DNA from: a virus
Length of the DNA: 64,000 bases
Virus record (IMG/VR): IMGVR_UViG_3300002835_000148
Reading direction: 5' to 3' (one strand)
Numbering within the stretch: the stretch's first letter is position 1; each line of letters begins with the position of its first letter. Below, in pieces: positions 36,088 through 38,574 of the stretch. The position numbers and the translations under genes are program-made. Under the pieces are notes generated by a model, which saw nothing but the letters and a program-made list of their open reading frames with translations, was not told where the DNA came from and ran no database searches.

Positions 36088-38574
36088 TTACAAGGCACCT
36101 CCCAAAAAGCTCTGATACATTTCCAACAAACTTTTTTGCGCCAGTGTGCGGCTGGCTAGCGCTTTGTACAATTTGGTCTCAACAGGACTGCTGCATAGGT
36201 GGACTACCAAACAAGGATTCTTCTGCCCCGATCTATGCACCCGTGCATTGGCCTGTAAATATGTCTCCGCCGATGTCGTTGGGGAGAACCATACTACCGT
36301 ATTAGCTGCTGTCAGTGTAACCCCATGTGCCGCCGCCTGTGGCTGAATGACTAGCACCTGTGGGTTTTTATCAGTCTGAAACTCTTTGAAAATAACCGTG
36401 CGCTTTTTAGCCGACACATCACCGTGTATCGCTGCTGTGGTTATGCCATGCTTATTCAGGTAGCGCTCGACCAAATCTATCGAGTGCCGAAAGGCGCAAA
36501 ACACTAGCGTTTTATGCGAGACTTGCTGAACAATGTCCAGCAATTCTTCCAGTTTGTTAGAGCAGTCAAACTCAACAACCTCTCCAGTGTCAGAATACAC
36601 TGATCCACAATTATGCACAATAAGCGGCCCTTGGTGCCCAGCTACAACAAACCTAGCCCTGGGTCCGCAGTTAAGTAAGTCGTAAGTTTTTTGCTCTTGT
36701 CTGGAGGCACCATCAGGGCTATTTCTACGGGCCAACCCGCCTTTAGGCGTCTTCTCAATGTGATAGGCTTGATCCCATACGCCTTCGCCGCTTGTGCTAT
36801 GGGCATTAAACCTTTCGGGGTGTCTATGAGTACATTCGTCCGTTTGTTCAGCCCCTGCTGTTCTGCGGTAGCCCATCGGCAATTTTCTGGGGAATATGGG
36901 CCATTGTTGTCTATTCGATCCAGTGTGAGCCCCTTCTTGTATACCGGCCCCATATCTAACCAAAACGCCGCGAATGAATACCGCCAACTTTCGCATACTG
37001 CTATACCCCGTGCCCCGTAATTTTTGTAGTCCTTGTTGGAGGGATTGTGACAACGGAGTATCATGTTTTGATAATTGGAATACGCCTGATGGTAACTCAT
37101 TTTGTGCGTTTCGTTCCCGTGGTGGCAGCCACAACTCCTTGGGTATTTTCTGTGCTTCGCCCGCAAGTATTGGCTCTCCCTTTCCGTAATGTTCCCACAA
37201 TCGCAAAGACAAAGCCATCTGGCTTTTTTTGCTTTCCCAACTGATGTTCCGGCCCTTGCTATCACAGTCAGGTAGCCGAACTTTCGCTGCATCAAATCTA
37301 TAGCCGGATTTGCCATATAGTATATCTCCTGCTGTGCGCCAACCTTGTGTAGTAAGGACATTATGATCTAGTGTCATAGATACCCCGTAGCAGTCCTCTA
37401 CTTGCTTAACTCCTCGGAATATGACTCCACCATGATCTACCCATTCCTCTCCATCCCAGACTTTATGCTTGGCTGATACGTCTTGTATAGGTATCCAGCC
37501 TATATCCGTGAGTACCGGAGTATTATACACTATGCACGAAATTTGCAATAGCTTCCCCATCTGCACAGCGGCATTTACCGCTGATATATCCGTCCCCGCC
37601 GCCTGAATGAGCTGCTCTTTCCTCAGCTTATCATAGTATTTTTTCTGCTGCGCTGTCATAGGTATTTGCCTATCTGAATACAGCATATCCGGTAAGTCTA
37701 GGCAGTCTTCTGTCTTGTATCGAATGGCTGGCTGAAGCGCTTCATACACAATATCTTGAGCTTCTGGGCGCGGAACGTATTTGAACTGCGACGTTTTCAG
37801 CATCACTTTGTCTTTCCATGCTCCAGCATATCCCGGCACAGCGCTTGGATTCACTAGCCTAGCCTGACCATACGCATCTTCTGGTGACTGCGCTGCGGGT
37901 GTTCCTGTCAATAGCCAGAGCCATGTGTCTGCCTTTATCAATGAGTTTAGCGTCTTCCATCGCCTTGTCTTTACATTCTTTAGCGCAGTGCTCTCGTCAC
38001 ACACAATCAGGTCAAAGCCACCCTGCAATATCTCATCGCGCACCACTTCAATCCCGTCATAGTTGATGATGACAAAATCGGCCTTACCCTTTATAACGGC
38101 GATGCGCTGCTCTTTCGTGCCGTGGGCTATACCCACTCGCCTGTGCATAACTGTATTGAATAGGTCTGACCGCCATGCACAATCCATGATAGACAGTGGG
38201 CATACGATCAACACGCGCTTTATTGCTTTGGTGTTCAGCAGGTAGTCTGCGGCCCACGCTACAGCAGAGGTCTTCCCCGTCCCCATCGCATTAAGGCAAA
38301 ACGCTCTCCTGTGCAATGTCAGAAACGATGCAGTGTCCCTCTGATGGTCAAACGGGCTGTATATTCCGGGCCAGTCGTACTTACCAAGGATAGGTGACAG
38401 CACCTTTTTGAAGCCTAGGTTTTTCAGAATCATGGCATTGCCCAGATTCCAATGCACAGCAACATCGTGCACTCCATGCCCTTCTTTTATAACCTTGGAC
38501 TTTTGAATCACCTGAGTGATTTTGTCTGGGTTCTTTGTACGCACAACAAGTGCGCTATTTGCTAATACTTCCAT
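36088..38574 (-). CDS. SNF2-family helicase, intein-containing precursor
   Basis: 828-codon continuous frame. Motifs [36 protein letters not shown] and [11 protein letters not shown]. Interrupted at aa 347-655. Confidence 0.85.
   Translation of the reverse strand: [828 protein letters not shown]
36610..37536 (-). mobile_element. intein in SNF2 helicase (309 codons)
   Basis: Begins [10 protein letters not shown] (Cys codon 37536..37534). TLDHNV block. Ends [25 protein letters not shown] (Asn 36612..36610) followed by a Cys extein residue. Confidence 0.8.
36642..37316 (-). CDS. homing-endonuclease-like protein nested out of frame (+1) inside the helicase intein
   Basis: 224 aa from an ATG with AGGAG 9 nt upstream (ORF-track 36642..37361). 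Motifs WLCLCDCG..SCGC, YKNYGARGI and LDRIDNNGPYSPENCRW are shared with 40515..41234 and 42547..43041. Confidence 0.7.
   Translation of the reverse strand: MANPAIDLMQRKFGYLTVIARAGTSVGKAKKARWLCLCDCGNITERESQYLRAKHRKYPRSCGCHHGNETHKMSYHQAYSNYQNMILRCHNPSNKDYKNYGARGIAVCESWRYSFAAFWLDMGPVYKKGLTLDRIDNNGPYSPENCRWATAEQQGLNKRTNVLIDTPKGLMPIAQAAKAYGIKPITLRRRLKAGWPVEIALMVPPDKSKKLTTYLTADPGLGLL

Follow-up and report, generated by a model that had tools for sequence, protein, structure and literature searches.

The locus described here raises the question whether one stretch of DNA can encode an intein in one reading frame and the protein that mobilizes it in another. It lies on the minus strand of the virus record IMGVR_UViG_3300002835_000148 from IMG/VR, of which 64,000 nucleotides (nt), referred to as the window, were analyzed. 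An initial annotation had described an SNF2-family helicase gene of 828 unbroken codons with an in-frame intein, the middle of which is also open in the +1 frame and was thought to encode a homing endonuclease. We now favor, with a probability of about 0.78, the interpretation that this is a mobile 'non-canonical' intein, in which the Hint domain and the homing function occupy two overlapping frames of the same strand. The features on which this interpretation is based are the following:

36088..38574, minus strand: SNF2-family helicase gene, 828 codons in one unbroken frame, intein included.
36610..37536, minus strand: predicted class-1 intein of 309 amino acids (aa), helicase residues 347-655, with Cys1, a TLDH block B, a C-terminal His-Asn and Cys +1.
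37267..37536, minus strand: N-terminal splicing region, intein aa 1-90; pLDDT (predicted local distance difference test) score ~96; host-frame ratio of nonsynonymous to synonymous substitutions (dN/dS) 0.15.
36712..37263, minus strand: host-frame 'shadow' linker, intein aa 92-275; pLDDT 31-65; dN/dS 1.44; stop avoidance.
36610..36699, minus strand: C-terminal splicing region, intein aa 280-309; pLDDT 93-95; host position 3 most variable past the nested stop.
36642..37316, minus strand: nested open reading frame (ORF), +1 relative to the host frame, coding for a presumed homing endonuclease of 224 aa (coordinates with stop); PHROG 374; mean pLDDT 90.6; dN/dS 0.10.
37326..37330, minus strand: Shine-Dalgarno (SD)-like AGGAG with a 9-nt spacer to the nested ATG.

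The helicase frame is open throughout, and a Pfam scan recognized its two lobes on either side of the insert, SNF2-rel_dom at residues 96-333 (1.2e-17) and Helicase_C at residues 674-783 (3.1e-20). As the gene is conserved among related phages, we take the helicase to be needed by the phage. The insert begins with the nucleophile C347 and ends with LIVHN655, followed by C656. These boundaries are exact, because all 53 intein-free helicase relatives found in IMG/VR read through the junction without interruption (...LLQIS|[S/C/A/G]G.VY..., insertion point marked by |); in two of the 53, the N-extein is 99% identical to that of the window. The intein-less site reads ...CAAATTTCG|TCTGGCTCCGTATAC..., and that of contig L043 ...GGGAAGCTATTGCAAATTTCG|TCTGGCTCCGTATACTCTGAC.... 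Across 11 related inteins, Cys1, the T-x-x-H of block B (T55 and H58), the terminal H-N and Cys+1 are invariant, and block B aligns with block B of the Mtu RecA intein. The host-frame translation was also modeled with AlphaFold2, giving pLDDT values of ~96 for residues 1-90, ~94 for residues 280-309 and block means of 31-65 for the linker. In a Foldseek search with this model the top 36 PDB matches were all inteins (probability 0.77-1.00), and the Mtu RecA intein superposed on it with a root-mean-square deviation of 2.2-2.4 Å over 86 columns. Based on the model, we are confident that the helicase insert would fold as a Hint domain, like the solved inteins. A profile of 11 mini-intein constructs was searched against the PDB and matched the Neq (Nanoarchaeum) Pol split intein (1.7e-4), Mtu RecA (2.4e-3) and the Spl (Spirulina) DnaX mini-intein (0.014), with 12 of its 14 PDB matches being inteins. 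In the alignment of these 122-residue constructs, G104, P105, R106, R108, F109, H121 and N122 are invariant. A single-sequence phmmer search of the PDB with the intein gave weak matches only (E 0.35-0.7), all of them to the RecA intein, and megablast of the helicase region against GenBank phages returned no match. Taken together, the nucleophiles, block B, the predicted Hint fold and the insertion at a conserved site all agree with membership in the class-1 inteins.

The +1 frame is open over 36642..37361 (minus strand), and its start codon (ATG, 37316..37314) is preceded by the AGGAG at 37330..37326, exactly as initially described. The ATG and an SD-like GGAGG, AGGAG or AAGGA at equal spacing are kept in seven of eight homologous helicase inteins. 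The encoded protein matches PHROG 374 (E 6.6e-60) and PHROG 3377 (3.9e-51), both carrying the PHROGs label 'HNH endonuclease', and has more than 7900 relatives in the protein collection searched; HTH_psq was found in 27 of 60 of them. Its predicted fold is poor only at the end, where the last ~20 residues coincide with the C-terminal splicing block. Judged by conservation and model, the nested ORF is shown to be a real protein of 224 aa, predicted to be well folded, strongly conserved and part of a very large phage family.

We then asked how both frames come to be open. The synonymous codons of the nested ORF were permuted 4000 times with the nested protein held fixed, and the stops arising in the host frame were counted. 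The permuted sequences contained a mean of 11.2 host-frame stops and none of the 4000 stayed open; resampling of codons by the window's own usage gave a mean of 15.6 stops, again with 0/4000 open. The corresponding expectation, exp(-11.2) = 1.4e-5, is of the same order as the chance estimate of ~1e-5 in the initial annotation. The third frame of the same strand contains 21 stops across the bases of the nested ORF. A host-frame stop is possible only where a nested codon ending in T precedes a codon starting with AA, AG or GA. In the window's nested ORF, none of the 60 codons in such risky contexts ends in T, compared to 42 of 163 (26%) of the other codons; for seven homologous inteins the corresponding counts are 0/396 versus 297/1133, a comparison for which a P value overstates the independence because the sequences are related. 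Both frames are open by selection and not by chance.

Which of the two frames is read was examined by comparing variability at the codon positions of the host frame among seven distinct helicase inteins:

Before the nested ATG: host position 1, 0.30; position 2, 0.26; position 3, 0.59.
Across the nested ORF: host position 1, 0.53; position 2, 0.28; position 3, 0.25.
After the nested stop: host position 1, 0.31; position 2, 0.24; position 3, 0.52.

Across the nested ORF, peak variability lies on host position 1, which is the wobble position 3 of the nested codons. By the Nei-Gojobori method, the nested frame over the middle of the intein has a dN/dS of 0.10 at an aa identity of 0.71; the identical nucleotides read in the host frame give 1.44 and 0.35, and the N-terminal splicing region in the host frame gives 0.15. 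Purifying selection changes frame within the helicase intein. Only the first ~90 and the last ~30 intein codons are shown to be under protein-level selection in the host frame; the ~185 intermediate host codons are unstructured and fast-evolving, and the absence of stops is their only detectable constraint. Given its pLDDT of 31-65 and dN/dS of 1.44, the host-frame linker is not a folded conserved domain, in line with the initial description of this part as merely stop-free. The initial proposal would have failed if the off-frame ORF were never translated; its dN/dS of ~0.10 points in the opposite direction. The layout, with ORF and start, is kept in eight diverged helicase inteins. Synonymous sites are saturated between several intein pairs (dS > 2), and therefore the two-frame layout is old.

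The element itself is a recent arrival in the lineage of the window. Contig L043 is 97-98% identical to the window across ~6 kb and lacks the helicase intein as well as two further elements described below, a polymerase intein and the free-standing paralogue at 42547..43041; L044 likewise lacks the helicase intein. Differences between the alleles are concentrated at the junctions, as seen in the tract next to the helicase intein:

36595..36609, minus strand: C-extein tract beside the helicase intein, differing from the 98% identical intein-free allele by 5 substitutions in 15 nt.

These five changes comprise TCT (Ser) to TGT (Cys) at +1 and four synonymous ones, and the next difference is found at +89. 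At the polymerase junction, comparison to L043 revealed synonymous changes at -1, -4 and -7, GCG (Ala) to TGT (Cys) at +1 and one change at +9. All closer intein-less relatives for which the junctions were read (L043-L055, N-extein identity 74-99%) have Ser at +1 of the helicase site and Ala at +1 of the polymerase site, and the codon for the Cys+1 nucleophile therefore arrived with the intein. The clustering of substitutions at the junctions resembles co-conversion, so that the elements represent a recent gain here and not a loss in L043. We read this footprint as gain by gene conversion with short co-conversion tracts. It argues that something cuts these sites, for which the nested protein would be the obvious candidate.

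Beyond what the initial annotation had covered, the window contains a second intein with a nested homologue, located in a polymerase gene; it is listed here together with the free-standing member of the same family, which had been noted initially:

39857..42553, minus strand: gene for a family A DNA polymerase (898 codons), host of the second intein.
40490..41332, minus strand: second intein, 281 aa, polymerase residues 408-688, a paralogue of the helicase intein.
40515..41234, minus strand: polymerase nested ORF in host frame +2, 239 aa from a conserved ATG; the longest ORF (246 aa) starts at 41255.
42547..43041, minus strand: free-standing paralogue, 164 aa, abutting the polymerase start codon and missing from L043.

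The N-terminal region of the polymerase intein is 45% identical to that of the helicase intein. L043 and others are uninterrupted at its insertion site, which is occupied in L054. The nested ORF matches PHROG 374 (E 4.8e-32), with only a weak match to the PHROG endonuclease VII, and the GGAGGA upstream of its ATG at 41234 is formed by codons of the host's invariant W-D-G-E-E-W. The +2 offset is kept in six IMG/VR relatives. In four gap-free polymerase inteins, the variability peak is on host position 3 over nt 0-240, shifts over nt 300-780 to host position 2 (0.58-0.70), the nested wobble position at this offset, and then returns. The first ~55 nested codons overlap the N-terminal splicing domain, and there all three codon positions are slow, which suggests, as far as these four sequences can tell, that the ~55 codons may be under genuine double constraint.

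The free-standing paralogue is 44% identical over 80 aa to the helicase nested protein, in agreement with the shared motifs initially noted. It replaced the first ~14 polymerase codons and appropriated the start formerly used by the polymerase (ATGCCTGAT); the new ATG of the polymerase shares bases with the stop codon of the paralogue (ATGCTAA). The three paralogues of the window are only 33-44% identical to each other, and hence did not arise from each other by recent duplication. Two overlapping, very glycine-rich ORFs of 147 and 126 aa with GxGxG repeats (43363..43960, minus strand) were observed upstream of the replication module.

Inspection of DNA found the two-frame layout in at least 16 other assemblies from different projects, with protein identities of 41-73%. 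Recurrence was recorded for 11 helicase loci and six polymerase loci from IMG/VR, APSE-1, Caulobacter and Shewanella phages, and contigs L103 and L104. The 11 IMG/VR helicase contigs encode relatives of the nested ORF with 53-73% identity, all in the +1 frame of an SNF2 helicase that is complete or truncated by the contig end, within inteins of 309-310 aa at the identical insertion site; below 45% identity, the IMG/VR relatives occur as free-standing genes. Among GenBank phages, the best matches to the nested protein fall within DNA polymerase genes, namely those of APSE-1 to APSE-7, four Caulobacter phages and Shewanella phage SFCi1, and in the three GenBank polymerase cases examined the nested relative is in the +1 frame. 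Among the GenBank records examined, only APSE-1 annotates the inner gene (P46, 'HNH endonuclease', within P45).

An exhaustive phmmer search with the host-frame intein retrieved 2503 representatives, that is, clusters at 50% identity, at E<=1e-3, 1331 at E<=1e-10 and 148 at E<=1e-30. In most of the best 150 matches listed, the alignment spans the full 309 host-frame residues, and with them the nested gene's 'shadow'. Nine representatives were compared to Pfam and comprised one SNF2 helicase, five family A polymerases and three proteins without a match. Two further phmmer matches inspected as DNA, L103 and L104, both contain a nested ORF. L104 (1001..3784, Logan SRR7589087) carries three inteins of this splicing type in a single polymerase gene, with a +2 nested copy 58% identical to the window's polymerase copy and a +1 copy 44% identical to the helicase copy. 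When the intein was used in word-indexed protein searches, no more than 18 and 7 proteins were retrieved, and many of these were truncated calls; the true spread emerged from the exhaustive search. In public gene calls of these inteins, the host gene is often truncated, or only the nested ORF is called on short contigs; some truncated calls (P0121-P0138), such as P0136 on a 25.9-kb contig, may reflect genes that are truly broken or split.

Some related loci show other arrangements. L102 (772..3201) contains a short polymerase intein of ~150 aa with a truncated nested ORF that looks like a stage of decay. L099 (2625..5192), L102 and L104 use a neighboring insertion site, GKTTILG|CGYGMG, 4-5 residues from GKT|CQLSL of the window. 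In L004 (252..3602, ORF aa 196-485) and also L005, an extra helicase intein is found at motif II (DE|C...HN|C), and in L004 this intein contains a 237-aa +1 ORF resembling Vsr-like endonucleases by eye (YKLDFANPELKIGLEVGG...GWKVLR); if true, this would be the two-frame layout with another endonuclease family. In L039 (3944..5605), a member of the endonuclease-like family is interrupted by an apparent LAGLIDADG intein (CFHPETP...LAGIMDSDGYW...TVVHN|S). L042 (3218..4993) encodes a thymidylate synthase-like ORF with an endonuclease-like domain inserted in frame and no recognizable Hint blocks.

These observations can be combined in the following model. The helicase precursor would be translated through the linker, and the intein, linker included, would splice itself out to give the active helicase. 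As the host frame is continuous, splicing would occur in cis. The nested protein would be made separately from the same mRNA by internal initiation at the conserved SD-like sequence and ATG. It would then bind and cut the intein-less allele at LLQIS|SG, and repair would copy the intein into it along with a few adjacent nucleotides, among them the Cys+1 codon. The element may have originated when a free-standing endonuclease gene, similar to 42547..43041, invaded a mini-intein; since this invasion, selection on the essential host gene would have kept the host frame open.

A number of results weigh against this model. No Hint or intein family of Pfam or NCBIfam was matched by the helicase and polymerase proteins (E<=0.1) or by the mini-intein constructs (E<=1), so that the search with intein profiles suggested in the initial annotation was negative for the curated collections and positive only for our family profile, which reached solved inteins (1.7e-4 to 0.014). 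The conserved SD-like sequence is not independent evidence, because its bases also encode conserved host residues (A-E/G-D-I). A consensus scan for promoters and terminators found 7 promoter-like sites versus 10.2 expected and no dedicated promoter signal. RNA folding at the two nested starts (z = +1.0 and +0.4) revealed no hairpin sequestering the ribosome-binding site (RBS), as seen upstream of free-standing homing endonuclease (HEN) genes by Dassa et al. (PMC2677866). In addition, the nested protein gave no Pfam HNH match, and Foldseek with its confident model returned nothing from the PDB at E<=1e-3. The best PDB match of the nested family profile is I-HmuI (1U3E), which at E=0.38 is not significant. 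In this alignment VDHKDGN..NLRW..N of I-HmuI is paired with LDRIDNNG..NCRW..N, the Asn of NLRW being retained as N145 and the His of VDHKD being replaced by R134, which is invariant in 60 relatives. We take this His to be the general base of I-HmuI (His75) and N145 to correspond to its Asn96. With Arg at the catalytic His position of the HNH-like motif, 'endonuclease' stays a presumption and the nuclease assignment is weak. Of the initially proposed endonuclease-like gene in the +1 frame, the separate protein of an endonuclease family has held up; its nuclease nature is the presumptive part. We infer that the precursor splices, that the nested ORF is translated and that DNA is cut, splicing from the intact catalytic residues and the probable need for the helicase, and site-specific cleavage from the homing footprint.

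It is conceivable that the nested protein is an HNH-derived, sequence-specific DNA-binding protein, and that the element spreads by ordinary recombination or through cleavage by another enzyme ('collaborative homing'), for example another phage or host nuclease. The invariant Arg, the missing HNH match, the confident model without similarity to any solved nuclease and the mixed names of its structural relatives in BFVD (AP2, DNA-binding, PVL ORF-50-like, HNH) would all fit such a protein. But the three copies in the window are polymorphic for presence and accompanied by co-conversion-like tracts, the classic footprint of site-specific double-strand-break repair, and the putative metal-ligand positions D/E133 and N145 as well as the Cys clusters are conserved in the family. 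Moreover, an HNH-like core followed by a C-terminal helix-turn-helix, as aligned here, mirrors the domain order of I-HmuI, the HNH homing endonuclease of Bacillus phage SPO1; this enzyme differs from the nested family in being encoded by an intron instead of nested in an intein, in having His where the family has Arg, and in lacking the extra Cys clusters (CxC...CGC), and Foldseek did not match the two. We consider a DNA-binding protein without cleavage activity unlikely, though the most probable of the alternatives. The nested ORF could also be a relic that was once functional and is now carried along untranslated because the host frame must stay open. Its translation is deduced and not observed directly, neither promoter nor regulatory structure above chance is found near its start, and decayed versions such as the truncated ORF of L102 do exist. 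A relic, however, would gather stops and frameshifts, whereas the nested frame is intact in 8/8 helicase-type and at least four polymerase-type inteins, has retained its low dN/dS despite saturated synonymous sites, and belongs to an element recently acquired in the lineage of the window. This makes a relic very improbable.

Even less probable is production of the endonuclease by programmed +1 frameshifting, as a fusion of N-extein, N-intein and endonuclease, instead of by internal initiation. Both frames are on one mRNA, and upstream of its ATG the nested frame continues without a stop for 17 codons. But a +1 stop lies 17 codons upstream of the ATG in the window, and within 14-17 codons in six of the seven relatives examined, so that any frameshift would be confined to a very short stretch of codons; free-standing relatives begin at the equivalent position, and the polymerase type has the other offset (+2). 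A frameshift fusion was rejected on account of the ATG and SD-like sequence, conserved in position in seven of eight homologues. An artefact of sequencing or assembly, in which two compensating indels displace an in-frame endonuclease domain, is a purely a priori concern, helped only by the lack of an exact public duplicate of the window in the phage collection. We regard its likelihood as negligible, since the same offset recurs in the at least 16 independent assemblies mentioned above; the exact 239-aa nested product is also present on three further contigs of the Joint Genome Institute (JGI), the nested ORF starts with its conserved ATG and SD-like sequence, and the second intein of the window has a different offset. 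A group I intron was ruled out by the open host frame and the presence of the Hint fold, and a split intein or fractured gene by host frames that are continuous over 828 and 898 codons.

Every checkable statement of the initial annotation was thus borne out and none required correction, and comparative, statistical and structural results support its view of the architecture; its belief that no out-of-frame nested version was known is wrong in view of several earlier systems. Among the closest is the P45 polymerase intein of the Hamiltonella phage APSE-1 (NC_000935) with its P46, which shares the intein family, the nested family (40.6% identity to the helicase nested ORF) and the +1 offset, but resides in a family A polymerase (YGGKS|C...HN|CEN) and not in an SNF2 helicase; P46 is annotated shorter than its open frame. 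This intein is differentially lost among APSE variants (PMC7313666). Our literature search found no paper discussing the two-frame arrangement of the APSE-1/PHROG 374 family, the 1999 APSE-1 paper lying outside its coverage. In actinophage inteins, Gosselin, Arsenault and Gogarten (bioRxiv 10.1101/2025.01.02.630785) described endonuclease VII-like genes located in 'frame 3' as well as antisense LAGLIDADG or Vsr-like genes; they proposed the invasion of inteins by free-standing endonuclease genes and called the architecture rare. As in the window, a same-strand HEN in another frame lies between the splicing blocks, the in-frame translation is structureless and the HEN has free-standing relatives. 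But the actinophage HEN belongs to endonuclease VII (IPR004211, matching PDB 1E7D), while the window protein belongs to PHROG 374 and has no Pfam Endonuclease_7 match; phage hosts and exteins differ as well, and the rarity reported there contrasts with the 148 clusters at E<=1e-30 found here.

In the cyanobacterial DnaX intein, a LAGLIDADG gene occupies an overlapping +2 ORF (Phillips, DeSimone and Gogarten, bioRxiv 10.64898/2026.09.14.751524; this HEN is called antisense in bioRxiv 10.1101/2025.01.02.630785). Phillips et al. credit Gorbalenya 1998, 'Non-canonical inteins', with the first proposal. In both the DnaX and the window elements, the in-frame linker is disordered, the (presumed) endonuclease of the overlapping frame has a confidently predicted fold, and omega across the overlap is below 1 in the alternative and above 1 in the host frame; DnaX differs in its cellular host, its LAGLIDADG endonuclease and its single extein. 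The fractured genes of Dassa et al. 2009 (PMC2677866) likewise contain a free-standing HEN gene that landed in the intein-coding region of phage-like replication genes, and the model of these authors explicitly foresees alternative outcomes of such invasions. There, however, the host frame is broken, splicing occurs in trans and the HENs are of the GIY-YIG and Vsr-like types, in contrast to the continuous frames of the window. The ShiLan insertion (Arsenault et al. 2025, PMC11855218), an out-of-frame HNH gene without splicing domain, also hides an endonuclease in another frame of a host-open insertion and raises the same question of translation, but stays in the host protein; an RBS was not found there and a leaderless GTG initiation was proposed; the window has Hint blocks and a conserved SD-like sequence with ATG. 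The architecture itself is therefore not new, having already been described for DnaX and actinophage inteins and annotated for P46 within P45 of APSE-1. Our analysis adds another endonuclease-like family, new exteins, two offsets in one genome and direct evidence of recent gain.

There is an indication that the overlapping-frame layout is common rather than rare in phages: the host-frame shadow is shared by no fewer than 148 clusters (50% identity), and the layout may be widespread in phages of Gram-negative bacteria. Gene callers either take the nested ORF in place of the host gene on short contigs or cut the host gene short, and many phages therefore probably have mis-annotated essential helicase and polymerase genes. 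The helicase intein also provides a clean natural case of a frame constrained only by the absence of stop codons, which would be useful for calibrating overlapping-gene detectors, and its model suggests for engineering that Hint domains may tolerate ~185 residues of unstructured insert. The window and its relatives form a nearly complete series, consisting of a free-standing gene, +1 and +2 nested genes, a decayed copy and 97-98% identical intein-free alleles, which suits testing the model that the splicing domain comes first and the endonuclease invades later. Whether the composite of Hint domain and PHROG-374 'DRIDN' protein is a stable and successful element, long overprinted, moved between SNF2 helicases and several family A polymerase sites, with two fixed offsets (+1, +2) and ~55 apparently doubly constrained codons in the +2 form, or rather a rare transient step to an in-frame fusion or split intein, we judge to be evenly balanced. 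If the proposed homing function is true, it would be the first functional role, that of an intein homing factor, for the PHROG-374 family, whose members are without the canonical HNH His.

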